64,000 nt of DNA from Owenia fusiformis (lineage: Eukaryota), in NCBI GenBank assembly GCA_903813345.2, contig CAIIXF020000001.1:4030001-4094000 (forward strand), given 5' to 3'. Of this stretch, positions 6,784-33,700 are shown one piece after another. Position numbers and translations under genes: made by a program. The notes beneath the pieces were generated by a model. It saw only the letters and a list, made by a program, of their open reading frames with translations. It was not told the DNA's origin and ran no database searches. Numbering within the stretch: position 1 is the stretch's first letter; every line of letters begins with the position of its first letter.

Positions 6784-9700
6784 CTACATTGAACAAGAAA
6801 GAATAACTCATTAAAGATGGAATGGTGATCAGCAAATTAATGTACGAGGCCCGATCAGAAAGTAAGTAACCAAGTGCTCTTATTTTTCCATACTTTATTC
6901 AATCACATTGAAATTTTCACAGATGATGTAGAAAATATTGACCTATTTAACAAGATCTAAGGAAATGGTCTTGCGTCAATTCCATTGTTATGGCTGTTGC
7001 TATGGTGACAATTGTTTTGGGTAGGCGGGGCACCCTTTTGTGGCGTTTGAAGATACTCAGGTAGAGTTTTTCTACATGTTGTTATACCCCCAAATATATC
7101 AAATTTACATGTGTGACTACATTTTAATTCCTAGTTCTCCCAAATAATCGCTACCAAAGTCAATGCAGTTAAAGCATTGAATCAAAATGATAAAAGCTTA
7201 AGAGTAAGTCTTTGGTTTCTCGTATCCTAGTTTGGACTATTGCAGCATTTGTGTTTGAGAGATTGTTATTATGTGTTTTATGTTATAAGTAAAAACTGTA
7301 CAATGAACAAGAAGTACACAGATACATACCTATACATTTCAGTGTGTCTGAGCCTGGTTTTGGTTTGTATCTTTTATCACAGTGGCATAAATGTGAACCA
7401 ATTATGTTCTCACATGTTGAGTGGGCAGGACAGTTGTGGGTTTCCTCTGAACACTCATCAATATCTGTAAATACAGAAAGACTTACCCTGAAGTTCAGCA
7501 AGCCACACTAGACTCTGATTATAACATGATTTAAGTTTTATTGCTGTATCTGAACAATTTCATATTTAACTTGAACTTAAATGAAAGTTGTAATAGGAAA
7601 TGTATGCATTTTCTGATGAGATCTATATGAATGCACTGCAGGTCAGAAAGTGTCTCTGATTTGAAAAGTGCAGACAAATACGAGTTTTTCTAAGGATAAA
7701 ATTAAGAGAAAAAAACATCAAATGGGGAAAGTCATAAATTGATATTTCTTACCAATGCAGTCTCTTTCTTGTGGTTTGAATCCCTGTTTACAAGTACAGG
7801 TGAAACCACCAGGTGTGTTCATACAGGTGGAGTTAATGTGGCAGTCATTTTTAGAGAACTCACTCTCCTCTGCTAGACTACACTCATCAATATCTGAAAA
7901 TGTTTTATTCACATACATTATATGAGTAGTAACTACATAAACTGCTAGCCTAAATTGTTCAGGTACAATGTCGGTATCATCTTCCACATCTTTTCTCAGA
8001 TTTTTCTTTGCCTGAAAAAAAGGTATTCAATCTTTTTTACTTAGTTTTTGAATTACTTTTAATTTTCTCAATTGTACTTCATGTTTAACAAAATCAATGT
8101 TCGCAAAATCGATATGGGCTGCAAGTATTGTTTGGATATGTTGTCTGTACATCGTATATTAAACACTTTCACTCCTATACATCAAAGGTTTACTCTTGTC
8201 TATGTTTTCAAGGCATTGTTTTCAATTCAATGAATTGAAAATAATCAATGAAAAATACATGACTTTTTTCATCTGTTGAAACAAAACCTTGAAAATCCAT
8301 TGAACAACCATAATACAACCATTGATGTCCAAAATTCAAGATTGAACATTTTTAACAGGGATATACCTTCACATCTAAGGAAGATTTCTGGATTCGTCTC
8401 ATTCATCTTTTTAGTATATCCTATGGCACAGTCACAACTGAAGGACTTGCCCTTGTCCTGGTACAGACAAATACCTCCCTTATCAGCAAAGCAGGGGTCC
8501 TTGTCACACCATTTGATGTGATCTGAAAAGAGCAATTAGTCATTTAATGGATCATTTTTATAACTTTTCGAGTTTGTCATTTAAACATCCTTTAAAATGT
8601 GTTCAGTGAAGATTTTATAAGTGTATGCTTTTATATGTAGACTTCAAATAATGTATGATATCACTTTCATTTGAATATCTTATGACTTAAATCCAGAATA
8701 TTTTTATTTGCATCTAGCTAATCTATTGTAACATTGCCAGAAGTAATAGGTCAAGATTATCATATTCTACTATACCATCTTCACAGCCCCTGATAAAGCA
8801 ATCTGTGCTTAGAGTGTTAGATATGCCATTCTCCCAGAGACAGTAGCGCCCTCCATTAGCGGGGGCAGGGGAATCACAAGTTCGATGTCTGCAACGAAAA
8901 GAAAGTACTCTTGGTAATTGGGCTAAACAAAATATCAGAAAATAATTCTATTTCACTAAGTAATACTTGTCTCAGAAGACATTCTCAGAAGTTATTCCTA
9001 TATTTCATAAAGCCTCAAACAGGCTTGTGATTTACTCAATAAGATAAAAGATAAATTCAAGATTTTTATAAAGATTTATCTAAATTTACCTGTAGAATTT
9101 TCCAGGTCCACAACCAGAGCTACAATCTGTCAGACTGATTGCTGACCACTCACTCCATCCACCATTTGCTGGAGTAGAGTTTAAATTTCGTTTTCAGAAC
9201 TTGGTGAAATAAACAAAATACTAACAGTATGTTGTCCTTAAGTGACTCATAGCGTCCTTTTCAGTATTCTTGAGCAAAATAAAGACTTCATTTTCACCAC
9301 ATCAGGTCTACACATAATGATGTATAAAAATTGTTACTTTTGAAGTTTGGATTATATACACTGTATCAGTGGTAATTTTTCCTAATCATTTAATTGCCTT
9401 AATTGCCAGGTTCGGAAAATTAAATGTCGGAAATATTATCTTCATAATGTTAACCAATGGGAAGTTTTTTGTCATTAGGAAAATTAAAATTAGGAAAAAA
9501 TAATAAACTTGACCATTCGTCAAATTAACCACTCAGATTTAATTCCACTTATACAGTATACATGGAAAGACAGTTTTCCAAAAAGACAACAGAAACAACT
9601 TATAACTATATGAACTTCAAGACAAATATGTGGACAAACAGGATCTGAACTTATGAGCAATTCCTGAGAGGATATATAATAATCCTCCTTTCTTTTGTAA

Positions 9701-12700
9701 CTTACTATGTTCACAGGCAGGTCCAGAGAATGTGTCTCTGCAATCGCACGTGAAGCTGTTAACGCCCTCTATACACTCTCCTTTATTGTTGCAAGAATCT
9801 TCTTTACAATCGGGAATATCTGCAAAAAAATCGTATTAAAACAGTATTGACATAACACGAGGGTTTCTCATACAAAGGTTGTGAAGTTCACAGAATATAT
9901 GTGAGTAATATAATCAGAAGTCTACTTTTTAGAAAAAAGTTCTCTAAAACAAAAAAAAAATTAGTACTGTGGGTACTGGGCTCACATGGTGACAGAAAAA
10001 AACGGATATAATTTTTTGTTGCAAAATTATTTCAAGCAGTCTGTTTCTCAGTCAATTAAAATGGCTGAAAAAAAAAACGGATATAATTTTTTGCCAATAA
10101 TTTGTAACAAAATTATTTCATACAACTACTCTTTACAGTGACATGGCTTTTTGCAATGCAAGACACCTGAAATTATTTGTAAAGCTAGGAAATGGGCCAA
10201 AATTGAATGGCAACCATTTTGAAATCAGGCAAGCTTTTGAACCAGGAGTCATAGGGGAGTTTTTTGTATTGATGTTGAACAAAAATAACTTGAAACTGGA
10301 ATCCTATCGACAGAGGTTTTAAGCAAATGGTCCAAAAGAGGATTTCGCGAGACAGATGGACAAATCAATGTTAACTAAAATGGCTGAAAATAAAAAAAAT
10401 GGATATAATAGTTTGCCGATTTTTTGTAACAAAATTATTTCATACAACTACCTTTTACAGTGACATGGCTTTTTACAAGGCAGGACAGCTGAAATTATTT
10501 GTAAAGCTAGGAAATGGGCAAAAAGTGAATTTCGCGAAACAAGAATAGCAACCATTTTGAAAGTAGGCGAGCTTTTGAACCAAGAGTCATAGGAGAGTTT
10601 TTTGTATTGATGTTGAACAAAATTAACTTAAAATGGGAATCTTATCGACAGAGGGTTTAAGGTAAATGGTCCAAAAGTGGATTTTGCGAGACAGATGGAC
10701 AAATCAATGTTAACTAAAATGGCTGAAAATAAATAAATGGATATAATTTTTCGCTGATTTTTCGTAACAAAATTATTTCATACATCTACTCTTTACATTG
10801 ACATGGATTTTTATCAAAAGTGAATTTCGGAAGACAAAAATGGCGGCCATTTTGAAAATAGGCGAGCTTTTGAACCAGGAGTCATAAGGGAGTTTTCTGA
10901 ATTGATGTCGAACAGAAATAACTTAAAACAGGAATCCTATCGACAGAGGTTTTAAAACGTGCCACTGTTATTGACAGAAAGTGGATTTCGCGAGTCAAAA
11001 AGACAAATCAATGTTAACTAAAATGGCTGAAAATAAAAAAATGGATACAATTTTTCGCTGATTTTTTGTAACAAAATTATTTCATATATCTAATCTTTAC
11101 ATAGACATGGATTTTTACAATGTAGGACACCTGAAATTATTTGTAAAGCTAGGAAATGGGCCAAAAGTGAATTCCGCGAGACAAAAGTGACGGCCATTTT
11201 GAAAATAGGCGAGCTTTTGAACCAGGGGTCATAGGGGGGTTTTCTGTATTGATGTTGAACAGAAATAACTTAACACAGGAATCCTATCGACAGAGGTTAG
11301 CTAGGAAATGGGCTAAAAGTGAATTTCGCGAGACAAAAGTGAAGGCCATTTTGAAAATAGGTGAGCTTTTGAACCAGGAGTCATAGGGGAGTTTTCTGTA
11401 TTGATGTTGAACAGAAATATCTTAAAACAGGAATCCTATCGACAGAGGTTTTAAAACGTGCCACTATTGTTGACGGACGGACAGACAGACGGACAAGTGA
11501 GTGATTGCAAAAGCTCACCATGTGAGCTAAAAACAGCTTTTGATTCCATTTGAAATAATATTTTGACGTTCATAACGTAGATCAAACTTGGCATCATGGC
11601 ACTTTATATAAAATGTGTCTGTACCTGTGCAATTAAAGCCATCTCCTTGGAAGCCATCTTTGCAGTAACATGTAAAACTACCATCAGTATCTTTGCACTC
11701 TGCATGCTCACTACAGGGTAGGTCAGATTCCATGCACTCATTTATATCTAAATAAATGAAGTGTGCCAATCAGTAGCAGAATACATTTACATGGTGGATG
11801 GGAATCAACAGCAAAAGTTAGGCATAAAAAACAACATAAGCAAAGTTTTGGCACTTGTGCGTACATGTCTGGTGACTATAAAAGCAAAAATAGCAATAAA
11901 AAGATAATTTCAGGTGAGCCTTGTTGGTTCACACATAGGCTTCAAAATATTTTTTAGTGATAATAGCAAATATTATCTGCTAGCATTTAGGTTTGCACTG
12001 TGCATTGTTTTATTTGAAATACGATAAATGAATCCTGAATCTATGCATTTTCATGACAAGAACTTTATGAACTAGCTTACTACTGCAAACTTGGTAACCA
12101 TCGTCAACATGTTCAGAGTAGCCCTTGTTGCATATACACTGGTGTGTGCCAGCAAGGTCTAGGCAGTGGGAGTTAGGTATAGTAAGACAAAGGGTGTCAT
12201 CTATAGCACATACATCAATGTCTGAAACATACAATAAACATATTAATACACAAGTACATGTACATTAGCACATACATCAATATCTGAAATATAGAAAAGA
12301 CATAAATATTTTCATTATTATTTAATAACAATTCAACTACAGTTCAAGTAAACCACTTTCAACACTAATTTTTAATTAGTTTCAATTTATTGGTTAATTG
12401 CGGTTGACCCAATAAATCAAACACATACGTAATTAAACATCACAAATCAATACATTTGTAATGTACATGTTTACTGAGACTAACATAAAATAATATTTCA
12501 TGTTAGTCTCAGATGTTTATAACTGACCTACGCAGGTGAATCCATCTCCAGCAAATCCTGTGAGACACGTGCATTGAAAGCCTGCACCAGCGAGACTGTC
12601 TATGCTGTAAGGAAGGTCTGTACATGTGGCGTGTATGTCACAGTTGTGAACACCACTGTCACACTCATTCACAGAATCTGAAACCCATTAGTAATTCGTA

Positions 12701-15700
12701 AATAATCAGCCAGTTGTTTGAGAAAAATTCTTTAAAAGTTTTTAAAGTCTGCTTTGTTAACAAAAATGGTTGGTGAAACAGATTATGTCAGTGTATGTGT
12801 AGCATTTATTGCAAATTTTAAAGTTGTTATAGTTACATTCTTACCTCCACAATCTAATATGAATCTATAGAATTGTATATTGTTAATCATGTTGTCCTCT
12901 GTCTTGTTGTTTGCAGTTATATGTACACCGAGGTATGGGTGTTGCCAACAGTACTGGTAGACAGACTTTGTAAGAGGAATAGAGAGTCCAAACCCACTCA
13001 AGTCAATGGTCACTGTGCTTTTCATACCTATTTCAGCCTAAAAGAAATGTTCAAATAGGTAAAACGACTGTTTTTATTTTATTCAACAAAAATGTGTTTA
13101 TGTTGGTTGTACATCGTTTCAGATCACTATGATGATAGATCAAACTTGGTAACAAATTTGCATCATCCCAATAATTTCAAAAATCTCACTGCATAATTGA
13201 AGAAATCAAACTGAAAGGATAGTTAATCTACTATCTAACCCAAAGCTAAACATTATTTGCCAGGATAATCTCTTACCTGTAAAACCTTGAGTTGCTCTGA
13301 ACTCATTTCCCCAAATGGTAGAATGAGATCATCTCCCCCAAATATGGGATCATTAGACAACACAAACATCATATCAAAATTGGTATCTAGTCCTGTTTTC
13401 TGAGGAAACATTGCATTCCCAGTGGTTGTGACAAGTATATCTATGGTATATGAGAGTTCCTGACCAGGCATATAAGTTCCAGCTTGTAAATTGTCTATGG
13501 TGAACTTCTGCAATTTGATGTCTATGGAATCATCTGTAATTCAGAGGATATCCTGTTATTCATGAGGGATATCAAGTTGTCACTGTGTAATCCTTACTAA
13601 AGCAGCCGAATGACAGCCATTCATCATTTCATGTGTTATTGTATACAAAAGTTGAGATTCCCACAAAACAAGTGCACACACTTGTAATAATAAATGTTTA
13701 AATCAGTATTCAAATTTTCTTGAATATTCATTTGAATCCTGGATTAGAAGGATGTACATATTTTCAAAGTACTCGATCAGAAATGTATTTTCCTAACTCA
13801 CCATTACACTGATCAGGGCGCATGGACACTCCAGTAACATAGGTATTAATATCATTGAAGTACTCACCATTACACTGATCAGGGCGCATGGAAACTCCGG
13901 TAACATAGGTATTAATATCATTGAAGTACATGTACTCACCATTACACTGATCAGGGCGCATGGACACTCCGGTAACATAGGTATTAATATCATTGAAGTA
14001 CTCACCATTACACTGATCAGGGCGCATGGACACTCCAGTAACATAGGTATTAATATCATTGAAGTACATGTACTCACCATTACACTGATCAGGGCGCATG
14101 GACACTCCGGTAACATAGGTATTAATATCATTGAAGTACTCACCATTACACTGATCAGGGCGCATGGACACTCCAGTAACATAGGTATTAATATCATTGA
14201 AGTACTCACCATTACACTGATCAGGGCGCATGGAAACTCCGGTAACATAGGTATTAATATCATTGAAGTACTCACCATTACACTGATCAGGGCGCATGGA
14301 CACTCCAGTAACATAGGTATTAATATCATTGAAGTACATGTACTCACCATTACACTGATCAGGGCGCATGGACACTCCAGTTACATAGGTATTAATATCA
14401 TTGAAGCACTCACCATTACACTGATCAGGGCGCATGGACACTCCAGTAACATAGGTATTAATATCATTGAAGTACATGTACTCACCATTACACTGATCAG
14501 GGCGCATGGACACTCCAGTAACATAGGTATTAATATCATTAAAGTACTCACCATTACACTGATCAGGGCGCATGGACACTCCAGTAACATAGGTATTAAT
14601 ATCATTGAAGTACTCACCATTACACTGATCAGGGCGCATGGACACTCCAGTAACATAGGTATTAATATCATTGAAGTACTCACCATTACACTGATCAGGG
14701 CGCATGGACATTCCAGTAACATAGGTATTAATATCATTGAAGTACTCACCATTACACTGATCAGGGCGCATGGACACTCCAGTAACGTAGGTATTAATAT
14801 CATTGAAGTACTCACCATTACACTGATCAGGGCGCATGGACACTCCAGTAACGTAGGTATTAATATCATTGAAGTACTCACCATTACACTGATCAGGGCG
14901 CATGGACACTCCAGTTACATATGTATTAATATCATTGAAGTTATCTTCATTTGTCTCATCAACCTGTAAAAGTATATCTACCACTGCTGCCACCTTTATT
15001 TGACCAGGGTAGTTACACAAGTAGAGATGTTCTAATTGTGTGATGACAAAGCCAGAGTTAGTTTCTGGGGCTGAAATAAAATAAACATATACACCTACAG
15101 TACTGGGAAAAGTTATAGAATAACTCCCATATCCACTTATTATATTATTTTGAAGTTAGACAAGGCGTTTCCATGATAAAGGCATTTCCTTGAGCAGATT
15201 TCTACTTCATGTAAAATGTTACTTTATAACAATTTTATTTCTGTTGTAACAGGTTTATACCTGAAAGATCTATGTCCCTTGTGGCTCTTGTTTTCTCATT
15301 GATCACATCCATGTGTACTGCAGTATCGAAGAAAGCACCCTGTTGGATGCCACCAGCTTCCAGAATGAATAGGAAGTCAAACATCATTGGTTGATCATTC
15401 GACTGAACTCCCCATCCACCATCTAGACCTGAAACATTTTGTCGAATTGTTATGATTCAGCTTTGTCTCTGTAATTTTTAAAGAAGCATTTTTGCTTCAT
15501 CAAAAGTCAATTTAGAAAAGCATGCCATCTTCCAATGAATTTAATGCATTGAGATAACATGTACATTAAATAAAAAATTGGGGACCTCCCAGCAAGCCTA
15601 AAGGCAGTGGTTATTAAATATAATATGCCTATCCAAAATATGCAATTTTTTCAGATGTTATGTACTCAATGCATGATGTACAACATACCTGATACCTTGG

Positions 15701-18700
15701 CCCTGACTGCAAAGTTATATGGATTGAATCCAAACACAAGATCTCCTGACACCAGAGAAAAGGGTTTGTCAGGACTTCCCAATAAATCAGTGCTGTCTAA
15801 AAAACAATGCCTTAATCAATACTGTATTAAAACTGTCACTTTCATTGTCACATCCATTGATGTATCTTGTATGTGTTTGTCACCAAAAGAGTTTAGTTTA
15901 TAAGTAGAGTTTATAAGTACAGGAGTTACACTATCCATACTGTAGGTTACCAGTAGTGAGATCTCCCTCAATTACTCCATATTACAAGTATAAATATTAT
16001 TCCATGACTTTACCATCTTCACAGTTGACTTCCACGCTAACACTGTAGACATTATTGTCGAACACTGCTTCCACTACATTATTGACATAACTACTGTGAC
16101 CCAGGCGCACTTCAAACACTAGCAAAGCATAACTAACAAGACTGTTGTGGTCTTCTAAGATAGGATCTATTGATGCCTCACATGCTGTTGTGATGTCTAT
16201 CTCACCAGACACACTGTAAAATGGCATATTACAATCATATATTGCAACGATACCACATTTCTTTGATAGAGTTCATAGGGCATTGTGGAATGGCTTTAAA
16301 GATGTTGACAACTCAATCTTTTTTTGGCGGGATCATAATATAGACTTACTTGAAAGTTGTTGCAGACCTAGCTGGTATGACATCAACATTAAATGGTGTC
16401 CGTCCTTTTGTGAAAAACCATTGCTTGGGTGACACATCATGATGCAATTTATCATCACTATTTTCATTAGTGACATACACCTAGAAAAATTGACATGATG
16501 TCAGGGTTTGTTCTTTGACCTATTATAACTAATTTGCTCACTGACTATTGATCTGCTTGTTTTTGTGTCTTCTTCTGAATCTTATATTGTTTCTTGCTCA
16601 ACAGGAGGGGTCATTTAACTGTCAAATTTAGATTAATTTTTATCAATAAGGAAAGAGGAACTAAGGTGTCATTGTGATGTGTTTCCAATTAGAGTTGAAG
16701 CTATTTTATTTTTTTCAAGAATTCTTCATACAACTTAAATGAGTTGAAGACATTATATTTTTTCAAGAATTCTTCATTAAACTTAAATGTGGACAAAATG
16801 TGTGGTATTTTAACAAGTGCCATGCATTTCAAAAGTTTGTATATGGTTTGTAAAAGCTTTCAAACCTTGATAGTTAGCATTAAACTTCACTACAATTTGC
16901 ACACTACACCTTGATATCAAAAGGCTGATAGAATTCATCTGCTATGAGGTCCATTTCTAGTAGATTGATAAGGGTGAACTCAAGGTCCAATAATGCAGGT
17001 GCTTTGTGGAAAGGATTCAGAGGATACACAGCTTCATTTGTCATATCAAATACATCTGCAATGCAATGTTATGGTGTAAAGAGATTTAGTAAGTAATTTG
17101 ATTTGTACAGGTAGGCAACTGATTTAAGGGTTGTGTAAGTGACATTTAGAGTTAGAGATGTACAAGTTGTTTAAGTGATAAACATGTGTAAAGTAAGATA
17201 TAATGTACATCCTTTTTTAACCAAAGATTACTATACTTGTACTAGTTCATATGTTTTACCATAATGGTATGCTTGACTAGTCATAACCAATGGGACATTG
17301 CCAAGATTAGCTAGTTGGTCCATTTTGATTTAGACACACAAATTGAGAAAGTCAATGTAATGTTTAGTAACAGATGTCAAAGTTGAGTATGGAATCTTTT
17401 AATCCATGAACTAAAAGGAGAAAATAGATGAATTCGTAAAGGAACCTACAGCTGTATCTATGTTAGCATACTTACCATGTAAGCATAGAAGATCAACAGG
17501 TAGTGGATAAACATTGTTATATTCTGAGGTTTCCTCTATCCACTTCTCACTGTCTACAACTGCCAAGAGGTACACCCTGCCACAGAGTCCAACATCCAGC
17601 ATGTATGGGATGTACAACAGCTCAAATGTACTGTCCAGTATCAAAGAACTTGAACCCGTGAATACACCATCAGTGTAGACTCTTTGTAACAAACCCTTAT
17701 AGTCCATTGCATAGTCTTCATCATCTAGAACCCTATCTAATGACACATAAAACTGAAACTTGAATAGTTGTTCATCTTCTTTGCCCAGGGACATTCCCAC
17801 TGGAACGTTGACAGAGACCTGGAGGTTAAATGAATAGTGATGGCCCAGGTGGATGTCCTGCAGGGATGTTTGGTGTGGGGATGTATGGTGCAGTGATGTT
17901 ATACTGAACATGTCCACACGGATATCAGGGGCACTAGAGCTGCAGCGTAGCATGCTAGATATGTCCAACACATAAAAGTTGTTATTGGGAAACATGTCCT
18001 TCGTATCTATGGCAACTCCAGGGTTAAGCATAAGGATTAAATATGGCAGAGTGCATGCCCCTAGAGGCACATTTACAACCATTTCTCCATCAATCAAGAG
18101 GTCCTCTTCAATATATCCACTAAGAGCATCTTTAATGTAGTCGTCTGTTTCAACAATAGCTACCTCCGAGTCAGTCTTATAGCTTAGATATTTATCCTCA
18201 GACAGGTAAAGATTCAGTTGAATATTGGCTCTGTTGTCTATAGTTGCGATAATTGGTTCACCATATTGATTAATATGTGCACTGATATGTACTTGAATGT
18301 CAACATCACTATAAAGGAAAGGTACAAGTGGCTGCAGGGTGAACCCTGTCAACTGAAATGTGTCACCATCGCATGGTATAAATATGGGAACACTCTGTAC
18401 ATTCTTCACCAAATTTGGATCAATCACAGTCAATGACTTCAAATTCTCTAACTTGGCAATAATATTCACTTTTCCACAATACTTTTTATATTGTTCATGT
18501 TCAAAGACATTTATCATCATGTTATCTGCACCTATGTTTAGTACTACAGTATCCAACATCTCATCCAAGATACCTCGTCTTAAGATGCTACTCTGTGAGT
18601 CTGTGTATTCGTAGTAGAGCTTGGTGTCATCAATACTGAGGTGGGAGTCTAGACTCAGATAGAAGTACAGTCCAATACTCAAGTCTTTACGGTCTACTAC

Positions 18701-21700
18701 AGATGCTGCTGGGATTTCACCTGAATACAAAAACAGAACAGCCCTGAGGTAGGAGTCTATATTCAGACATAAGAACACTCCAAAACTAAAGTCTTATATA
18801 TGCTGTAGGATCGAGAAGGTGGTTATGTTGTGTTTTAATTCACCATTGTTATTTATCTTTGTTGAAGATACATGTATGCATTGACATGATTGAATGAAGT
18901 GTGAATTTTGTTTAATAGATTTAGAGCTGGTCTGATTCTAAAAGCACATCTATATGTCCATAACTTTGCAACAGTAAATGACTCATTTTGTATATGTGGT
19001 GCTAAACAGCATACAACACATCACTTTTTTTTAAACTGCCCTCTGCTGCAACAAGAAAGATGCACTCTCCAAGCAGGACTAAAAACCTTAGGATTTCTCA
19101 ACAGTTTCCAAAACTTAAACTCCAATGAAAACCTAATCTATTGTATTTCCATTATTTGAAGTTTGATATGTTTTGTATATTGCCAACAATGTTGAAAAAC
19201 ATTTGGGTGGCAATCAAATATAACAGTAGAAATGTAGTTAAAATGTCTTCTAAAATATCTATTTGAAATACTCTGTGTATGACAGTTACAAAACTCTAGG
19301 CAACACTAACTAGTAAAGGGACAACACCCCAACTCAGCTACATGTGAGTGAATGCTATTATATGGAATACAAAAACAGTATGAAACAATCACACCATGAA
19401 AAGCTAAAAAACTGGTTTAAACAAAGGAAGCTCAAGTAGAAAGTATACAAAAGAAATGAAAACATTGTAATTAAATATTTGAAACTGGTGTAAAGTAATG
19501 AAGGGACCTGTTAAAATGACATGGATGGGGATTGGTCAATATGAATAGAAGAAATATAAACAATGTGAAAATGGCCATGTTACAATTGTATTTTTATATA
19601 TTATATTATTATTATTCAAATTGTATATGGAATAAATGAGAAATGAAAAAAAGTCTGTTCCACTATTCACCATACTCTAAAAAGACAATTTTAACATCAT
19701 CAACAATTTTAATTTCATCTAACATGTATGTAAAAAGAACAAGTATGACAGATCACAGCAAATGGGTATACATGCACATTTGCAAGAACACATCTAGCTG
19801 TTTATTTCATTGTCAAACTAACCTCCACCAAATTTGTGAACAGACATGTCAAGTTCATAAGCAAACATTTCTAATTTTTCAATCTTTTCTTTGTAGTTCT
19901 CCTCAAGCTTGAACCCACTGAGGGACAGATCAACCTGTTGCTCCTGGCAGTGAAACATGGACTTGTCCAGTGGGTATTGAACAATGTCATTTCCGGTGAA
20001 AAGTGACAGCTCAGGGGTGTTAGGTTTCAACCTCCAGAACATGGTTGGATTAGACCAGTCTGCCATGGCATCTTGACACATTGACATAGTTGGAATCTGT
20101 AGTACACCTGTACAAAAATACACCATACACTGATTAACTGGTCTGGTGGTTTATCGTTCAGAATATACTTCCCTCCATTGTAATAAATTCTCTGAACTTT
20201 CTTATATTATATATTATATCATATTATATATAGCTTTAAAATGTACCAAATGTAAGTGATTGTTTACCTGCTAGCATTGAACTTTTCACTTTGGCTCTTG
20301 GTGCTATCATTCCCGGGTACTCATACACTTCACTGTCTTCATAAACATTTGTCTTGACATCCTCATCTTCATCCAATATATCATCTAAGGAGAAAAACTG
20401 CTCCAACTGCAAATATAGAATGAATGGAAGGTCTAATACACCAAGCAACAGCCCTAGATACTTAGTGCTATTATACATAGAACTCTCAGGATTTCATTTA
20501 TTTAGAAATGACAGGTTAAATTATCAAAATATTATAATTACAAATGAAACAACTACATGTATACAGAGCCAGTGGCTCAATATTACAAAACATGTACCTT
20601 GTAAAGCCAAGAATCTGCAGAGATTGTTGAGTATCCGAGATTCTGTACTTCAGCCGTAAATTGGACTTCATTCTCAGACAGTGGCCACCAGGATTCTGGC
20701 CATTGTACATTCTGAATGTCCACTAACGTAAGCTGGTCATCTTCAATAACATTAAATCATGCAAATATTAATTTAGCAGAATAACCTAGATGATCACTGA
20801 TAATATAACTTAATGAATCATTTGAAGTGGAATACAGGATATATTCTGCTTAAGAAATTCTGTATTTGAACGAGACGAAAACATTTTTATCGTGTGATCC
20901 TCTGTATTGCTACTGAGAATGTCCCCTCCGTACCAATATTTTCTGTATTGCGACGGAGATGATCAATGGGGAAAAATCTCAGTAGCAATACAGATTGGTA
21001 CAGCACAAGAACTGACCAATCAGAAGGCTTTATTTTACAGATCATACGATAAAAGAAAATATTTGTCAATTATATGGTGCCAGAAGTGATTATTGTTACC
21101 TGCACAAATAATATTTATATGGTGTCTGAAGTGATTATTCATTTCATTCATATCGTCAACTGTATCAGGTAGAAACATCACTTTTACTTCCATCAACCTA
21201 CATAATAAAATGTAAGAACATTAATATGAAACACTAATACTGTTATGTGTGTTGAAAAGGTCAAGTCACAAATTATGATCATATGCTATGAAATGAGGAT
21301 TTTTGTCAAAAAACTAATTAGTAACGAAGTAGTTTAGCTGTCATGTATTAGGTTCCATTTACATATGTTTGATGAAATATTCATGAATTTGTATCAGCCT
21401 GTTTTAAAGGTAACACCTACCAAGATTTTCCACAGAAGCTCTGTATTCCTGGTATATCAATGGGTGGTATATTCTCCAGATTCAGTGGACTAACATGTGC
21501 CTGACCAGGCTCAGAGATAGGTGCAGTCAAGTTAGCAATGAAACCATCCACCCCATTGGAGTCATACCTTATCTCAACACCTAAAATTAACAATAGTGTA
21601 TTAAACCCAGGTCTATATTAACTCTGAAGCACAGAGGCTTCTAGTAACTATTACAGTGGAGATGAAGGTCTCTAAAGAACCAATGTCTAATGCTACATTT

Positions 21701-24700
21701 ACTTCACTCACTCGTGTTGACGTGACAAGTTGATGAAAATAATATAACTTAAAGTGAACTGATATTCTATATTTGTTCCATGACTCAAAGGTCATAGTGA
21801 TCTAAAATAGGTGAGCATCTACAGTAGTAGATCACTATGATAACCACATCTGTAACTTTTGATTCCTACATATAATATGTTATATGTAAATCCAGTGCTC
21901 TCAAAGCACTCTACAAAAAACAGAGACCATAACAAAATGTCACCACTTTTTGGTGGTGACATAACAATCCCGAAATTGTACCAAAAATGTTCACCCTAGA
22001 TGGGTTTTAGTGTACTACATAATCATTCATCACAATAATCTTTTCTGAAGTAACCTATACCACCCACCTTCATCCTGTCCTGTACCATCATATAGTGTTA
22101 CACTTAGATATATGTTCTGCAGTGTATCATTGAATGCACTAGGCTGTAGACCTGGCCCTACAGTAACCAGATCAACAGCCAATTCAAACTCTAACTGGGA
22201 ACCTGACGTAGCAACGGCGGAAGCCTCAAAGTCTCTCATAACCAGATCAAACCCATCTACAGTTAAAGAATAAAGGATTTATTTCTAAAATATTTCAATA
22301 GATAATTGAAATATGAGGTGAATGGTTACATTAATATAATCAACAAAGTACTGTAGGATTATAAAACCTGTTCTGTAGGAACATTACTTTTCAAAAAAGA
22401 TTGTGGCTACATGAGAGGAGATTCTTCACCAGATGTAGCCACCAGATAAATAAAAAACAGTTTTATCCTTATATGGACTTAACTAGCCTGAGACCAAGAT
22501 GTTAGCATTAAAACACTACCCTATGAATATCTTAGATGATAAAGCTCTCATTTAAAAACATATTGTTAAGGGTAAGAATTAGTCACCTGGACAGTTGGCG
22601 ACGGTTATTTGTACATGCTTGATGTTGTTTGCTTCATCCGTCTCCCACCACTCCCCATAAGGATCAAGGTATATACCCAAATACACCTAAAACACATACA
22701 GAACTACAGACAGATGAATAGTAAAAAATGCATAGCCTAAAAACAAAATTTTTCATGGCACATATCCGGATGGAGGTTAAGCTTTGCCTCAACTATTAAA
22801 ATTTGCCTCTCTGAAGATCTTCGCTAGCCTCTTTAATTTTCTCACCTGCTGCCCACAGAATTTCATCAATGGGTCTTTGGGTAATTGAAAGCTGACTTGA
22901 GTAAATTGATACACCTGGCCATCAATGAAATCTTTTTGTTGCATTTCCTCAAGATCTGTCTCAGTGAAATTGTACCCAATGTCGATATCATTTCTGTCGA
23001 TGGTGGCATCCTCTAGAAACATGGCCAGTAAATGCATTATAAGAACTGATACAGCCAGGCAGAAAAAATTGATGTCCATTGACAAGTTTAACATATTGGA
23101 AATACATGATTTGACAATTGAAAGTAATAATAATTTTGTGGTTGAAAGAATTCTACATGTTATATATGATGGACCAAGAAACTGACAAATGGAGGGAACA
23201 ATGTTGTTGTCTATTTTACCAACAAATGAAAAACATTTTGCCCCAAAGTTTACCAATGTGATCTTGTTTATAGGTGTTACTGACCAGAGAGGTACATCTT
23301 GGCCCCTATAAGTGGCCCCTCAGCAGGGATGTCTGGAACTGTGTGCGGTATGGTGACACCTACATTAAACAACAGGTAGAGGATAGTATCCCGATTCATT
23401 TCAATTTGGATATCTTCTAGCTGACCATCTAGTGAGAAGTCTGACACAAAGAAGTCAATTGCGGCTGAAACATTGAATAGGTTCATGTCAAATGACAACT
23501 GCAAATGCAACCTGAATATAATTGCTGTATTGGAAAGGTCAGAAAAGCAAATACAGTGAGCAAAACTGCTTCACTACACTTTTTGATATCTGAAATATCA
23601 CAAACATGGATCAAACCAATACATAAAATACAGGGTTGACAGAACTCTTATTCACTATGCCCACCCTGTATTTTAAAACATAATATTCAAGTAATTTCGT
23701 TTGCTCATACAAAATTCTGGCAGGTAAAACTGTTATCATATCTGTCCTAGTTGGGAAAATAATCAATCAAACAAATACATATATTCCAGTATACATACCT
23801 GGATTGCAGTTTAACTCAAATGGCTGAATCCTGATGTCATTTTCAGTGATTCCCCAATTCCCATTGGCCACTTCTTCACTGTCTCCAGGCTCAAGGATCA
23901 GTCCAATATACATCACCTGACTGCATGTGTAGATGTTGTCAAAGCTGAACACTCCAGCCATTCTCAAATGCTGGGAATTTCCTACAAGAAATCCTTGTTC
24001 ATATACTCCTGATACCAGTAAGTATAATTTAACCTATTATTATTTTGTGAAAAATACCCGGTACGAGAAATTTTGGATAATGGAGTGCCTTATATTTGGC
24101 ATCATGGTGTTAAATCCTGGAATATTGTCTCACCTGGTTGCAATGTAAAGTCAGTCTGTAATCCAGCCAGAGGTTCAAATAGAGTAAATGTATCACCATC
24201 TCCTTCCATGTTCACAACCCAACCAGCATCTATTCTACCAGGGTTCATCATATCTACTTCATTGAATTCACTGTCATACAGCTTAAATCAGAAGACAAAC
24301 TAGAAAATGCCAGTGGTGGGGGAAATGACTGACAGAAGGACAGGTAGACACATGGGCCAGAAAGGAACTACACTGTACATAGGCTCATCATATGAGCCAA
24401 ATGGATGACGAAGGATTGGAGAGATTTTTTAAAAATAAGAATGTCCTGGATTTCTTTTTTAATAAAATGAATTCTGAATTATAAAACTAAGACTCACTTT
24501 CAATAAAAAGTTGAAATGAACAGGAAAAGATACTGTAGGTGAAGTAGCTGCAGTTGGACAATTAGCGCTGAATGGACATCTTACATCAACATTTATCTCC
24601 ATTCTGAAGAGCTCCTCTTGCCAGGGTTTGGTTGTTGACAGATGGTACTGGAAGTTTGAGGTGTAGAACATATCTGGAAGAAAATACACTATATATCGAA

Positions 24701-27700
24701 TTGAAAGTAATATTCACATACACATTAAGTCAGGGTTCATACAATCTTTTAGAATGATATTCTCTAAAGCAGCAGTCTGGATGACAATTCAGGCGACACA
24801 TTGTCAAGTTGGATATTTGGTCTAAAACAAGGGGTTTTACTGCATCAGTGTTAGAGGAGACAGTGAATATACTGTACTGATTATATATAGTGATACTAAC
24901 CTCCTGTGCAAACTATAGTGAGAGGAGCAGCCTGCCAGTTATTCCCCTCATCTATCTCCTTAACAGCAGTGCCAGAGTCTAGTACAACTATGACATACAC
25001 TTCACCACAGAACATCTTATCAGTGCTCTCTGGTATAACTAGACTAGTGTAATCATCATAGCTGAAAGAAACACAAGACTGTGGACACCACATGTGCAAT
25101 ATACACAGCATTCACATTAACATTTTATAAGAAGTGGGATTTGACTGAAATTGGACTGAATGTATCTTAGATATTGAGAATTCAAAATTGGATTTTAAGT
25201 GTTGGTAAACTCACTATTTGGTGCTAAGTAACTATGGATCAAATTCTATGCAGTTTATTTAGGGATGGTGCAAAAAGGTCATATTACTCCTCAATGGGAA
25301 TCGAACCCCCAACCTCCCAACTACATGTCAGAATGGGCTTACAATTTGAGCTATAGAGCAACCTGCCCACATCAACATTGCATATGTATGACTTACATGC
25401 CAAGAATCATCAGATATCCTGTTGTCAATGTCAAGCACACTTAAAAACATAAATGCATTTTGGATAACCATGTACTGTATTATCATACCTGCTGAGGTCT
25501 AAGATAGTGGACTCTGAAGGGGCCATGATGAAAGGTTTGTTGCTTGGCACTGTGTACTCAAGTGGACTGTCCACCAAAGCCTGGAACTCATCATCAAGTG
25601 ACAGCCAGAAGGAATACTTAAAATATTCTGGAATCAGAAGAAATTATATGCTGAATTTATGGTATGAGTAAACTAAAGTATTATATGAAATAAATATAAT
25701 TTATAATGAAATTGGTGCATTTTGATTTTCTTCCCTCAGTAGCTTACGAGTCTTCCATTACAAGAGCTAGACTTTGTTGACCATATGCAATCAGACAATA
25801 ACATCAGAATTTTTTTGGCTTATAACTACATGTAGCTTACGTTTATTGCACATTCCGAAATTCCTACTAAAATGCAATGAAAAATACTTAAACATTAAGA
25901 TGTTCCGATCTTAACATCACAAACTTAATTGAAACAAGCAGACACTAGCATGTGGCTTGCCATTAAGTACTTGTAAGCCAAGTCCACTAAAACAGGTGTT
26001 ACAATACACACATGTCCAATACACATATACCAAATGAAAACCTGGTAACACCAGTAAAATCCTACCTTATATAATATCCCCTGTTAACTTCCTAAAATCT
26101 AAAATTCTAGATTTTACATATTGACATGGTTTGACTTACCTAGTTCCTCATCACTGTCATGTGTAAGCTGAGCAGCCAAAGAGAACATGACAGTCTCACC
26201 TAAGTCAACTGGACCTTCCATAGAAAATGACTCTACATACAAATCAGTGGCATCTGAAACAGAAGTTGGGACCTCTCATTACTTGTCAGAGATTACAGTA
26301 GGTAGCTATAGATCTAAACACCTCTCGAATCTGAACACCTCCCAATGTGAACAATTTTTGGTCCAATTTTCTATTTTCCCTCGACTACCATGCTAATACC
26401 TCCAAATGTGCCAGTCTTGGCCAGTCCCATTGGGATTCAGTTTACAGAGGTTTTACTGTATGTTCAAGATCAGAGAAATAGTCAAGATTTGGAACACAGT
26501 TACACCTCAAATAAAGATGGTAATAATTTATATTCGGTTGAAATATTTACTGTTCTATTACTAGTTTGTGTAGATGACTGGGAAATTGATCATTACAGAC
26601 ATGAAACGGCCATGATTTGTATTTGGGTCACTCACCTTGACATAAAAGATTCAATCCAGTGGGATAGTAGTTATTCTCTGTGTACTCTTCTGTGGTAAGA
26701 TGGTGGCTCCCAGGCAGCACACCCACTATCATATAAGAATAGGCCATGCAGTCAGTAGGGTTCACAGTCAGATCAAATGTCAGTCCTAACATCTCAAGAG
26801 TCTCATCAGGCTTTAATCCACGCTGGGCCTGGAGTGCTCCATCTGAAAACATTGAAGGAGATGACTAATTATAGCTGATTAAAAGATGTTTTCAGACCCC
26901 CAATTTTGGCCAGCACTAAACTGTACAAGCTCTTGGTAGATCTTAACGAGTTGAACTATTTAACATTGTTTGACATGTATTTTTACAAAAAGTCCCAAAA
27001 ATTTTATATATCATATGCCATTGTTGCTTTGGCAACCTTACACAGACATGACACCGCAAATCTACATTGGGTGCCATAAAAGAGCAACAGTGAGGTCTCA
27101 AGGTATGGTATAACATAAAAGGTAAAATGACAGTACCTTTTGGGACTCGAACATTGACAGTTAGTACTTTATCTGAGACATCAAACTGATTATCTCTAGA
27201 CAGTGCCAAGACATAGTAGATAGCGCTACAGTTGATACAAGGAGCAATGGCCTGTGTCCCTGAATTCACAATAGATAGATCTAAGGTCAAGGTCACAGGG
27301 GTATTCTGCCATATGAACTCTGGTTGTTGTAGGCTAGCTGAGCGCAGGGCAATCATATCTGGAATATAATAGAAAATACATTAGCCTAGCCAGATGTGGA
27401 GCATCTACATTTTTTCAAGGACATGAAAAATGATATATTGGTGTGGAGAGTTATGTTTAACAAGTAATTATATTATGTTTGGATTAGACAAGTTTTACTT
27501 TTGATTATAGGTGAGTGCAAAAGTGGAACTGTCTATGATCAGTTAATAAGGATACCAGTTCTTTAACTCAAATATAGGAAGAACTGCTCTACCTTGATCA
27601 GAAATTAATAAGCGTCAAGTACAACCATATAACTTAGGATAGAATACAATGTATATTGTGACATACCTTTATTACAATTCACATACACTGGAACATTGGC

Positions 27701-30700
27701 TATATTATTGCTCTTCCAAGTCTCTTTGATCTGATTCCTTGTATCTACATAAAAGATAATGTTCTGATTTCCACAATGTCCTGCTGGAACGATGATACCT
27801 GAAATATATAGTCATGTAGATAAAATGCTCACTTACAGTTATTGTTAATATTATAATGACATACATTTTATATGTATAAGTGATCTAGCAAAGCTCCCTA
27901 GTCATATATATTAATATGAAATGTATTAAGATTATTTATGAATAATAATCTAAATTCTTTTTGATTTGGTCAAAATATCTGAAAATAACATCCATCTGGC
28001 AGGATGCAAACAGACTGAGTTTTATGACAATTGATTTTTGAATTTTCAAGAAGGCAGCTCCTCTTATGCTGAGAACACAGAGTGCATCATATATTACCTG
28101 TTAAATCTTGAAAGGTCTTAATCTGGCCATCTTTCCACTGTGTGTTGACCAGGCGACTTAGACCTCTTGTCATACCATCATACAGTGGTGTATCCCCATT
28201 ATCCAGCTTATCATCCTCAGATACATACACATCGACTTGCATTCTGAAATAAACAAGGTACACATCAACTTGAGCAATATTGCACCTAAACATTCAGTGA
28301 GTATACATTGCAGTGAATTGACATGAACATTCACGGTAATTTCTTTTGATATGCATAATGCACCTTTTGAAAACCTCTTTTGATTTTCATAATTTTTTGT
28401 TATATTTTGGTGATCATTTTTAACAAGGGTGCTGTAATGAGACAATAAACACAGAGTTGTAAGAGAGCATAAACAGAAACAGTTTCTACTTGATCAGTCA
28501 TTTATTGAATTCAGAACGAGGCTATAACATCACATCACATTTAAAGGGATGCTATTACTTTAGTCTTACATCGTTATATGACAGGTGCTTGAAAAAATAG
28601 GTCACATAACAAAAAAAGGTCAAATGCAAATTACTATCTGCTGTTACCTTGAGGCAGGATAGTATCCTTCCCATAACTGGAGTGGCAAGCCATCAAGCCT
28701 CACTTTGGCCTCATACTTCACAATGGAACCAGGATAGAGTATGCTGCCATTAAACAGCCCGAAGCTTTCAACAGCAAGATCTCTCTCTATGCCTACAATA
28801 TGAAAGGAAGACCATACAGCACATTATATACTATACATGTTTGGTAAATTAATAAGCCTCCTTGCTTGCTCTTCATGCACTTAAACTTTCATAATGTCTC
28901 TCACAACTTGGTTATATGTTCAATGTTTAATGGCTTTGAATAATCTTAGGACTGCCCCTCAGTATATTCACTAGCCATTCAAAGATTGAATAAAGGCAGG
29001 TGTTCATGTGTATTTGGCCCTGATCTGATTTGTATAGTGCTCAACCAGTGCCAGTAACACGTATATACATGTAGAAAGAAGACCATATTTCCCAGGGGAC
29101 AATTATCTCTTTTGCACTGTCTCTTTCTTTGATATTTATCCATTTCCTAACCCCTATACTGACAGAATTCTAATAAACTAATTCACAGATCATTATTTAT
29201 TCTCTTACTTTTGACACATGGGTAGGAAACAGACATCTTTGAGTTCTCTGGGATCCCGTCAACCTGTCCAGTTAGGCTAGCACCAAAGTCCAAGGACAAC
29301 ATCAGTGTATTGAAGCCGGATATGTCACATCTGCCATTTGGAACCTGAAGGAAAAACCTATTACTCTTATTGGTTACCACACAATTCTCTGAAAAGAACT
29401 GATAATTTCTAGTTCTGGGGTTCAACCAATGAAAAGCATCAAAGAATGAGTGGCACAAATGTGTTCAGGTCTCTAGAAATTATCACAAGTTATTAGCTCT
29501 AGAAGACGGAGAAATCATTGTCCTGGATTCTCAATGACAAAAAATGTTGCCGAAAACAATATGCTACCACATCTTAATAAAATAAGAATAAAGTCCCCAA
29601 ACCTTGAGGTTTCCAGAAAGATGGAACTTCTTAGTATGGCCTTGGAAATTAAAGCCAACATCAACTCCTGGTGATACTGTCATCTTAAAATCATTTTCAT
29701 CCTTCCCGGTTGTCTCGTCAGCAATTTCAGTTTGATTCATAGAGTCGTCACCAACTCCTGAACCTGAAACTAAACCTGACCCTGAGCCCGACACATCAGA
29801 ATCCATATTCTCGCCAGATTCTCCTGAACTTGTTTTCTCATTTGGAGTGATGACTTGACGTGAGGATTTTGACAATATATCCACAAATCTAGTAAAAACA
29901 AAACATCAAAATCCTAGGTTCACATAATTATTCTTCTGTTCATAGATATTTTTCATTTAGCTTCTAGATAACAGACTAATAACGTCAACAACCTATTTCA
30001 GATGAAGAATCTTTCCAATATCTATATTCTAAATAACAATATTGAATTTTAAAAGAAATACATACTTAATAAACGCCTTATTCTATTTCACATTATTAAT
30101 GTACCTTGTATTAGAAGGCGTGTGAGATTCCAGAGTGAATCTTATATTCTCAAATGCAGCTGGTACATTACAATTCTCTTTAGTACAAGTGATCTCTAGA
30201 TCTATACCGAACTCAGATGTATACCCCTCAACCAGTGTACCACCAAAGCTCTCAAAATCCATGTTAGAAATACTGAAGAAATCTGGAAAAGTATATACAC
30301 CATGAAACGGAAAAGCTTTAAGGCAATGATAAAAATTATTCAAGTTGGAAGCTGAAGACTACTTTTTTGAGTGAGGATGTGATGGGGACATTTTTGCATA
30401 GTCACATTGTTTAGAAGGTTGTAGGATGTTCTAGTTTCTGTGTTGTATACCTTCATCACATATGATGGTTGTCTTGGCAACCTTAACATCATTGGTTCTG
30501 TCTCTCTGTAGTAAGTCAACATCCTCATCCACTACAGCAATCATATAAATAGGACCACAGTAGCTCATGTCTGATGGCACACCAAGTACAAAATCATCAG
30601 GTAGTGGCGATAATTTGGCATAGCCTTGGATCACTGCAAAAGTGAGAAGAGTGTTATTAAGTATTTTGAAACACACTTATTATTTTGTAGAGTAAGAGCT

Positions 30701-33700
30701 TACACTATAGACTGCAAATATCGGAAAGGCGGAAATTTCTGAGATTGCCTTTTGTTTATATCTGAATAAGTGAGCTTTACAACACAATAATTTTCTATCC
30801 AAAAAACCAGTGCTAATTCATACACTGTGAAAACATAGATGTCATACTTATTTGGATTTCAAATTAATATTAGATTTGTATTAATCTTTATTCTAGTTCT
30901 AGTCATTTCATTTTTTACTTACTCAGGGTGCCATGGGCAAATGCATTGTACTATCAAATATGTAACATCATGGACTATTTCTTGAAATTTGTAAGATCCA
31001 GTACATAAAATACAAGCTATTACCTTGATTACTATACATATTCTGCAAGAGAACATCTCCTTTATCTAAAATGCTATCTTTAGACATGTAAAGCCTTGTT
31101 ACAAAGTCCCATGGGTGCAAGGCTGGTGCCAGATCCCCCACTTTAGCTACTACTGACAGACGAAGCTTTGGCTCCCCAGGTACTCTGATAGAACTTGGCG
31201 CTGTTAGTGCTTGAAGCTCAACATCGCCATAATCTAACATGAAAAAAACATATAGTACATGGAAACATTATGCAAATAAGGTACAGACTGAATATAAGTG
31301 TTTTATAAAACATAGAAATCCAAATTGGCAGGGGACATTTTTGGGAATAAAAGCTGAATGAACAAAACTTTATAAATACTGAAATTTTTTTAATATAGTC
31401 AAACAAGATATCACCATGTGAGCCAAAAACATTAAACACAAACAGGTAAATTGGTTCTAATACTGTACGTACATTTAACATTTCCTCAAAGCCCTAAAAT
31501 GATGTACTTACATATTGGCTGCTTGCATCTTCTCCATTGGCCTGGGAAGATTGTTTCCGTAAAACTCACTGCACCACCTACAAAGTCAAATAACAGATCC
31601 AAAAACACAATATTACCTTTATCTTAGACTGAAGCTAGGCCTAAACAGTCATTTTAGGCACAGTTTCTTGTTTTTATATTTCCTGAGTTTTAGGTCCTTC
31701 ATGAATATAAACATGTAATATCTTAGGCTGCTTCAATTCTGGAGATGATAATTCTATTCATCAAGGCAAAGATGAGCACAAAAGGTAACAAGAAATTATA
31801 CCTGGCATAATCTCCACTCTCAATTTTTCAATCGCCTCACATTTCTCAGGAATGAAGAAATCTGGGTACAAAGTGGCAGTAACTCCTTCTAATCTGACCT
31901 TTTCAAATGGTCTCATAGGTTGGTAGTATTCTGGTGGATAGGTGAAGTCAGTCAGGAGGGTTAAGATCTGAGACTCAAACTCATCTAGTTCAGTATTTAT
32001 CCATGTTGCATATACCTTAAAATAGGAAATTAAATATTCATCCAAGTTGCATATACCTTAAAATAGGAATTAAATATTCATCCAAGTTGCATATACCTTA
32101 AAATAGGAAATTAAATATTCATCCAAGTTGCATATACCTTAAAATAGGAAATTAAATATTCATCCAAGTTGCATATACCTTGAAATAGGAAATAAAATAT
32201 TCATCCAAGTTGCATATACCTTGAAATAGGAAATAAAATATTTATCCGAGTTGCGTATACCTTGAAATAGGAAATAAAATATTCATCCAAGTTGCATATA
32301 CCTTAAAATAGGAAATAAAATATTCATCCAAGTTGTGTATACTTTGAAATAGGAAATAAAATATTCTTCCAAGTTGCATATACCTTGAAATAGGAAATAA
32401 AATATTTATCCCAGTTGCGTATACCTTTAAATAGATAATAAAATACTAACTTAAGTTGCAAACACATGTAGCAGGTTATAAAATATAAAACATTTATCCA
32501 GGATACATGCACCAAAAAGTGGATGACATTTTGAAGAAATCTTCAGTGTGCAAAACTGTTTCTAAAACCATCAGTACACAAACGAGCATTTGAGTTAAAG
32601 GCCCTCATAGTTTAACTGACAGAGAGATGGTATCAATAAACCAAAGCAAAATTTGCATTTGGACAATTTATCATGGTATTAGTACATTGTATTAGTATAT
32701 GTTTTTTGAGAATCAGTGACTGTTTTATTGAAATATTAACATTAACTTACATTAAAGATGTAGTTTGGTGCACTAGGGACTGCTTTTGGTAGAGTTTTCC
32801 TCCTCATGTTCTGTACTGTGATATCAAATTGAAACTGAGAGGCATCAACTGCAAACAATGGCTGGATGGGCCTGAACACCAATTCACTCAGTTTGAATAT
32901 TTCTGGAAAATATATATGGTATTCGGAAGAAACCTGTCGGATCAAATGCCTCTCTGTAATCAAAATGGTGGACATATTGAATATCTGTTTCTACTGACAA
33001 AAAAACTTGGGTTTTTGCAAGGTTTTGAAAGCCCGTTTTGAAACGAAAATGACGTCGTTTGTATTATGAACGCTGGTTGACATGTATTATAATAAATTTG
33101 AAGTTATGATATACCAAATTAAAGATATTTAAATTCCCTATTCACTGGTATATAATATGACATGTTTTCCTCATGTTTATTTTTGAAATATACGAATGTC
33201 CCATTTTTTGGACCACCCTGTACATAAGTTTTACTATACTAGAAAAATATTTTTGACAAAACGATAGCCCTGAACTTTCAGTTATTTCATCAGTATTTCT
33301 AAAACAAAGACCTTAATGATGACGAACATACTGATTCAATAGCTGATGAACCACCACTTACATGTAAGTAATTCATACTGGTAAAATATGGTACTCAGTC
33401 TAATGGGATGACATTACAACATAGCAATTGAATAATGAACAATCATTATACATAACTGGAAATAAATACTCTAATGGATTCATATGTTTCAATTATTTCC
33501 ACTTTGTTATCTACTTTGGTGAGTAAATAATCTGCAATACCACTTAGTGATACATTTATTAATGATTTAGACTACATTAAGAGAGTTACATTAACTTTAT
33601 TAATATATTTTGTTTATTGTATTAGAACATTATAGTTCACTAAAAGTAGCTTCAAAATGTGTTATATAATTGTCAGTCCTGGGGTCCCCATACCCCATAG

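Follow-up and report, generated by a model that had tools for sequence, protein, structure and literature searches.

A donor-reiterating minisatellite at an exon–intron boundary of a CARDB-like gene in Owenia fusiformis, with mostly silent variation among its units

Coding minisatellites and tandem-repeat exons, such as those of mucin-like genes, consist of in-frame units with an open reading frame and silent-biased variation, and their repeats remain part of the mature mRNA.

In the excerpted text of PMC1557585, minisatellites that straddle an exon–intron boundary with their first monomer are described for the genes F7, LMNB2, PDGF, IFI6 and CBS. In human F7 intron 7, the unit is 37 bp long and occurs in 5–9 copies, and normal transcripts are spliced at the most upstream donor alone (Borensztajn et al. 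2006, PMC1557585). Mutagenesis showed that donor choice in F7 follows a 5′-to-3′ scanning rule (PMC1557585). According to the same excerpts, only the authentic site is used in LMNB2 (100 bp, 10–15 copies) and in PDGF intron 4 (81 bp, 16–18 copies), and 6-16 (IFI6) and CBS intron 13 make constitutive use of the two pseudo-sites adjoining the authentic one (PMC1557585). These excerpts gave no account of how the units vary in LMNB2 and PDGF. A literature search for Owenia fusiformis together with minisatellite found no paper.

We analysed a 64,000-nt window of the O. fusiformis genome (contig CAIIXF020000001.1, positions 4,030,001 to 4,094,000), and all positions given here are those of the window. 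A minus-strand tandem array (Table 1) had four of the five properties of boundary minisatellites for which it was tested, among them a unit of tens of bases repeated head to tail and a first monomer that contains a real exon end and intron start. Its 17 head-to-tail units, of 66 nt (13 of 17) or 72 nt (4 of 17), each consist of 60 nt of exon end followed by GTGAGT, which was found in every unit from position 14881 down to 13801. Pseudo-sites therefore follow the authentic 5′ splice site at a spacing of 66 or 72 nt. The longer units contain a single type of insert, ACATGT, at the unit junction. The junctions bearing it (14479–14468 and three others, minus strand) form a perfect 10-nt palindrome, GTACATGTAC. 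TRF also detected a higher-order pattern with periods of 138 and 408, and variants were common to several units. If the last donor were used, units 2–17 would lengthen the message in frame by 1080 nt (360 aa) and the intron would shrink to 268 nt.

Table 1. Positions of the array, the neighbouring exons and related features in the window
Feature	Position	Strand	Description
Host gene, as far as partial P0001 reaches	8440–28242	−	CARDB-like repeats, then EGF modules
Exon	11625–11747	−	Joints of X1–X3 contigs
Exon	12081–12221	−	Joints of X1–X3 contigs
Exon	12528–12677	−	Joints of X1–X3 contigs
Exon	12845–13036	−	Joints of X1–X3 contigs
Next exon	13276–13533	−	Starts (D)DSIDIKLQKF; acceptor ttacag; P0001 residues 1763–1848
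Intron, first donor used	13534–14881	−	1348 nt; P0001 and contigs
Tandem array	13796–14941	−	TRF: period 66, 17.0 copies, 93% matches
Units 2–17	13796–14875	−	16 pseudo-donors, GTGAGT intact in all; within intron of main transcript
First GTGAGT, donor of main transcript	14876–14881	−	P0001 junction; X1 record 2 (deduced)
Unit 1	14941–14876	−	Exonic part is last 60 nt of exon 14882–15070
Exon bearing unit 1	14882–15070	−	189 nt, phase 1 at both ends; closes CARDB-like domain; (A)PETNSG...FNDINTYVTGVSMRPDQCN
Previous exon	15261–15426	−	Ends ...TRATRDIDLS; contigs and P0001
Exon	15687–15796	−	Joints of X1–X3 contigs
Exon	16014–16213	−	Joints of X1–X3 contigs
Exon	16350–16475	−	Joints of X1–X3 contigs
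Exon	17476–18718	−	Joints of X1–X3 contigs
Acceptor-side array	31994–32445	−	11 units of 41 nt, host-gene region

The host gene was recognised through a predicted protein, P0001 (2180 aa, source name "unnamed protein product, partial [Owenia fusiformis]"), which was found with the neighbouring 460-aa exon in a profile-free search of 1.84 billion representatives (E 1.4e-281). It aligned to the minus strand of the window from 28242 to 8440 over 2173 of its 2180 residues, in 36 blocks with zero mismatches, and residues 1700–1762 map to 15071–14883. As a predicted model, P0001 may rest on RNA data similar to the contigs X1–X3 discussed below. Pfam detected CARDB (PF07705) in P0001 with 44.3 bits against a cut-off of 22.7 (E 2.1e-11), a score that is the sum of weak stretches, together with several EGF families, and a relative, P0010, reached 89.4 bits for CARDB. 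The repeated domains end in the motif C..(V)Y..AVVD....E..NN....C.(G), and the exon bearing the array is the end of such a domain, where the unit would encode the last strand and the cysteine of a CARDB-like domain. Similar ORFs lie further upstream. Downstream, Pfam scans of individual exons of the 3′ part returned NIDO, AMOP and VWD matches in that order, all of them weak and below threshold.

Protein word searches with the array frame (targets of 761–2170 aa) and with the 63-aa exon (112–2000 aa) returned no match; these length ranges just missed P0001. A protein search with P0001 residues 1600–1900 returned P0001 alone, with no isoform or orthologue among the results. Pfam hits of the array frame to DUF5339, Colicin_D and a Borrelia lipoprotein family were rejected, as they were inflated by the repeats and no stretch passed alone. 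Two uninterrupted plus-strand ORFs stand among the minus-strand CARDB-like ORFs: one of 742 aa (34317–36545) with Ion_trans and ankyrin matches (TRP-like), and one of 478 aa (53715–55151) with a match to ASC, the amiloride-sensitive sodium channel family (E 2.2e-53). Both have the appearance of intron-poor genes, either inside the giant host gene or situated between parts of it.

The 17 units differed at exactly eight sites (index 0-based within the unit). Six of the changes are silent in the exon frame: TTC>TTT (unit 7, index 4), ACC>ACA (unit 1, index 19), TAT>TAC (units 2 and 3, index 22), GTT>GTA (units 1 and 9, index 25), ACT>ACC (units 11, 13, 15 and 16, index 28) and GTG>GTT (units 11 and 16, index 34). 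The other two, TAC>TGC (unit 9, index 0) and GTG>ATG (unit 4, index 32), are non-silent. A preliminary description of the span 13860–14925, which sits within the array, had listed the same eight substitutions, with the two non-silent ones in one unit each, and had reported a frame-preserving 6-nt insertion as the sole indel and an intact GTGAGT in all units; all of these observations were reproduced. The insertion is weak evidence for a maintained frame, since a single type of frame-preserving indel is a one-in-three event; the 66-nt length of the unit is another.

For a null expectation, all 198 single substitutions of the unit were classified in six frames. The expected silent share in the exon frame was 0.20–0.26 under five transition/CpG weightings, and the probability of at least six silent changes among eight was 0.0013–0.0052 across these five mutation models. 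In the other five frames, the silent counts were 1, 1, 2, 1 and 4 out of 8, none of them significant. The silent excess was restricted to the exon frame. A correction for six frames was not needed because the exon frame is set beforehand by the upstream exon.

The variable sites were unevenly distributed, with none of the eight beyond the initial 35 nt ((35/66)^8 = 0.006, hand arithmetic). Index 35–65, 31 nt through GTGAGT and including a CpG (GCGC), was invariant in 17 of 17 units. The first 35 nt contain 12 third codon positions, of which 6 varied, and the last 31 nt contain 10, none of which varied (Fisher one-sided 0.012, hand arithmetic). This invariance could possibly be due to a splicing-related constraint, to the mode of unit exchange or to chance (approximately 0.006–0.012).

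To place the units in the transcript, we considered P0001 and the contigs of four public runs (X1–X4) aligned to window positions 11000–20000. P0001 has one unit at the junction RPDQCN/DDSIDIK, not 17: its sequence ...VTGVSMRPDQCN / ...NFNDINTYVTGVSMRPDQCN goes directly to DDSIDIKLQKF, from the phase 1 donor to the acceptor at 13533. X1–X3 come from two studies, X2 and X3 being one sample, and from individuals other than the reference individual, the only one for which the array length is known. Their contigs had at least 12 joints with CT..AC ends (GT..AG on the minus strand), and for this reason X1–X3 were taken to be spliced RNA. The joint 15070→15261, with the same ends, was present in X1–X3.

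Record 2 of X1 (410 nt, depth 30.8) has 81 nt on 15261 and beyond, followed by 193 nt on 15070–14878. The remaining 136 nt fit 13394–13529, a placement deduced from differences at 13427, 13448 and 13475 at the same depth of 30.8 and from the distances to the contig end; the joint 13533→14882 was deduced from depths and end distances and is not among the joints listed. Pieces of X2 record 6 and of X3 record 10 extend over 13276–13533 and include the joint 13036→13276, and both records start 37 nt before 13533, exactly as far as the heterozygous index-22 site lies from the donor. An amount of 37 × 32.4 depth units fell into one array bin in X2 and into another in X3, a pattern to be expected of a piece that matches any unit. 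We deduce that the X1 contig joins the first donor to exon 13533 through one unit. A k-mer graph with abundant unit–unit junctions presumably could not yield such unbroken contigs. Contigs drop rare variants, and the one-unit result applies to the main form of the transcript. Contig cover was zero in bins 14010–14611 in all four runs, which was not taken as evidence.

Several other features of the contigs were noted. In X4, whose pieces extend into introns, a depth of 47.1 was recorded in bin 14612–14912, which hints at DNA or pre-mRNA with repeat units; contig depth gives no copy number. A tandem element of 152/304 nt with many back-joints lies at 10521–11450, and summed contig depth exceeded 100,000 in the 11000–11600 bins in all four runs. 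At 19127–19728, contig depth was several hundred to about 1,400. Both regions look like highly repeated or highly expressed intron elements. Near 17880, in the largest exon of Table 1, contigs of X2, X3 and X4 lacked 15 nt of the window, an in-frame difference, and the divergence from the window over this exon was approximately 3% (33 differing letters over about 1040 nt).

Taken together, the gene model and the contigs indicate that the most upstream donor is most likely the one used, and that in the main transcript 16 of the 17 units fall within the intron. Another source is therefore needed for the silent excess, or else a minor isoform invisible to the contigs. The preliminary description had proposed that the array is translated and under protein-level constraint. 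The signature of protein-level filtering was recovered (P 0.0013–0.0052), but translation of the array found no support, a single unit being present in P0001 and in the contigs.

The expressed unit itself offers a source for the silent variants. In the reference, unit 1, the expressed one, carries minority alleles at index 19 and 25, and the expressed units of the other individuals depart from the reference only at index 19, 22 and 25, always silently. At these three indices, the expressed allele of X1 reads ACC-TAC-GTT, and those of X2/X3 read ACA-TAC-GTT (depth 15.6) and ACC-TAT-GTT (depth 33). Of the six silent array variants, three also occur as variation of the expressed exon. None of the four expressed alleles examined carried the silent variant at index 28 (present in 4 units) or that at index 34 (in 2 units). 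Allelic differences in the neighbouring exons numbered 36 outside the unit, 26 silent and 10 non-silent, among the 39 classified of the 40 differences listed (130 in all), and this silent share matches the 6:2 of the array. The mean pairwise difference between units was 206/136 = 1.5 per 66 nt (approximately 2.3%, hand count), similar to the allelic divergence in exons of the host gene.

We consider it probable that the array is an intronic minisatellite of pseudo-donors with a silent bias inherited from the expressed copy. A 66-nt piece, made up of 60 nt of exon end and GTGAGT, would have been amplified head to tail into 17 copies. The array would be young, and its units would descend from the expressed first unit and exchange with it through unequal crossing-over or gene conversion, as suggested by the variants shared with the expressed unit and by the equal silent share of the neighbouring exons. 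Selection on the protein would already have acted on the older unit variants in the expressed copy, and the bias would be inherited because the units share this filtered variation. The three singletons of interior units, one silent and two non-silent, look unfiltered. The first donor would be chosen by exon definition, or by 5′-to-3′ scanning as shown for human F7. The invariance of the last 31 nt is not predicted by an inherited bias and argues against it, as do the silent variants at index 28 and 34, which the expressed alleles lacked.

A fairly unlikely alternative is that the array is neutral intronic DNA and that its silent excess arose from chance and mutation bias. Only eight sites enter the count, and C/T transitions at CpG (ACC/ACT before G, TAC/TAT before G) account for two of the six silent changes, as the preliminary description had cautioned. 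Without these two, 4 of 6 changes are silent (P approximately 0.02–0.04), and with index 19, 22 and 25, the sites of the expressed unit, set aside, 3 of 5 (P approximately 0.06–0.11; both hand arithmetic). The excess is no longer significant, again by hand arithmetic, when both the CpG changes and the expressed-unit sites are left out. However, P stayed at 0.0014–0.0021 even with a 10-fold CpG weight, applied to consensus CpGs only. Six of the eight variable sites, moreover, fall on one codon position preset by the exon frame, and the excess was confined to that frame.

A second array in the host-gene region, on the acceptor side of an exon (Table 1), served as a control. Each unit comprises a polypyrimidine tract, AG and the first 21 nt of the following exon, a putative exon predicted from the ORF 31761–32057 (VYATWINTELDEF...). 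The unit length of 41 nt is not divisible by three, and a deletion of 1 nt affects one unit; the array is older than the donor array and unreadable in frame. In its exon-derived 21 nt, 2 changes were silent and 5 non-silent. Exchange with an expressed copy therefore need not keep copies silent-biased. Chance and mutation bias gain from this comparison in that 2:5 is not significantly unlike the 6:2 of the donor array (Fisher one-sided approximately 0.10, hand arithmetic).

A possible further array of donor-like sites was observed at 60875–61474 on the plus strand, where a 21-nt unit is repeated 28.5 times with GTAAGT in each copy. It begins about 45 nt past a possible plus-strand donor, GAAA/GTGAGT near 60830, and adjoins a cysteine-rich ORF (59890–60240).

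It is also unlikely that splicing employs the downstream donors, whether constantly or in some stage or tissue, so that repeats of 22–24 aa (FNDINTYVTGVSMRPDQCNGEY) are translated and under purifying selection. The silent excess (6 of 8) would be explained directly, and so would its absence from the acceptor-side array, which could not be translated. Units of 66 and 72 nt with phase 1 keep the frame, no stop occurs in the 360 extra codons, and all 17 donors are intact. The array frame is open over 463 aa, continuous with the flanking exons and in phase 1 from any donor. IFI6 and CBS, in the excerpts of PMC1557585, also use their first two pseudo-sites. Against this reading, the antisense frame of the array is open as well, over 390 aa, and the second sense frame has a single stop, so that an open frame is non-specific as evidence of translation. 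P0001 holds one unit, the X1 contig runs unbroken from the upstream exon through one unit to the next exon (in part deduced), and X2/X3 form a two-allele bubble followed by a single path into exon 13533. Further, the silent changes of index 28 and 34 are confined to units within 11–16, far from the sites that precedent allows to be used. Improbable in our judgement is the narrower proposal that some stage or tissue uses the later donors and makes a ladder of proteins with 1 to 17 cysteine-bearing modules of 22–24 residues, the silent bias being the footprint of selection. If this were true, the modules would sit between two CARDB-like domains, and the array of splice sites would serve to set the length of an extracellular protein.

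An assembly artefact, in which the repeat was over-expanded or collapsed and the unit variants are read errors, is highly improbable: tandem arrays are error-prone in assemblies, but here variants are common to several units within the higher-order periods, three of them are independently present in RNA contigs of other individuals, and errors would not prefer third codon positions.

With the silent bias read as inherited from the expressed copy, the array is a caution for inference from sequence alone, as untranslated coding copies can show a pattern resembling low dN/dS. Such a pattern is possible when the copies are young and their variants are common to the expressed copy. The locus also provides a natural setting in which to study how a 5′ splice site is chosen outside mammals, the first of 17 identical near-consensus donors being the one that wins. 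Use of a later site would stay in frame and would give a clean size ladder without message decay.

Among the known systems, mucin-like coding minisatellites resemble the Owenia array in their in-frame units, open frame and silent-biased variation. They keep the repeats in the mRNA, whereas the main Owenia transcript splices out 16 of 17 units; repeats were found neither in P0001 nor in the spliced contigs, and the open frame continuous with the flanking exons, though present, is non-specific. The remaining comparisons follow the excerpts of PMC1557585. Like IFI6 and CBS, the Owenia gene has a donor-reiterating minisatellite at an exon end, but those genes use two neighbouring pseudo-sites and the Owenia contigs and gene model have, in the main form, the first site only. 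LMNB2 and PDGF are similar in unit length and copy number and in using the authentic donor only, and differ in being other genes of another phylum. Closest is F7: in both, the first monomer spans the boundary, identical pseudo-sites follow the authentic donor and the most upstream site is used, in Owenia according to the contigs and the gene model. The F7 unit measures 37 bp, 4 bp of which are exonic, and the Owenia unit 66/72 nt, 60 nt of which are exonic; there are 5–9 copies in F7 and 17 in Owenia, the donor is gugggu in F7 and GTGAGT in Owenia, and the hosts are a mammal and a spiralian. Unlike that of F7, the Owenia unit is a stop-free multiple of three, and splicing at a later site would make the protein longer without a frameshift. 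The Owenia array belongs to the already known class of boundary-spanning minisatellites, of the F7 IVS7 type.
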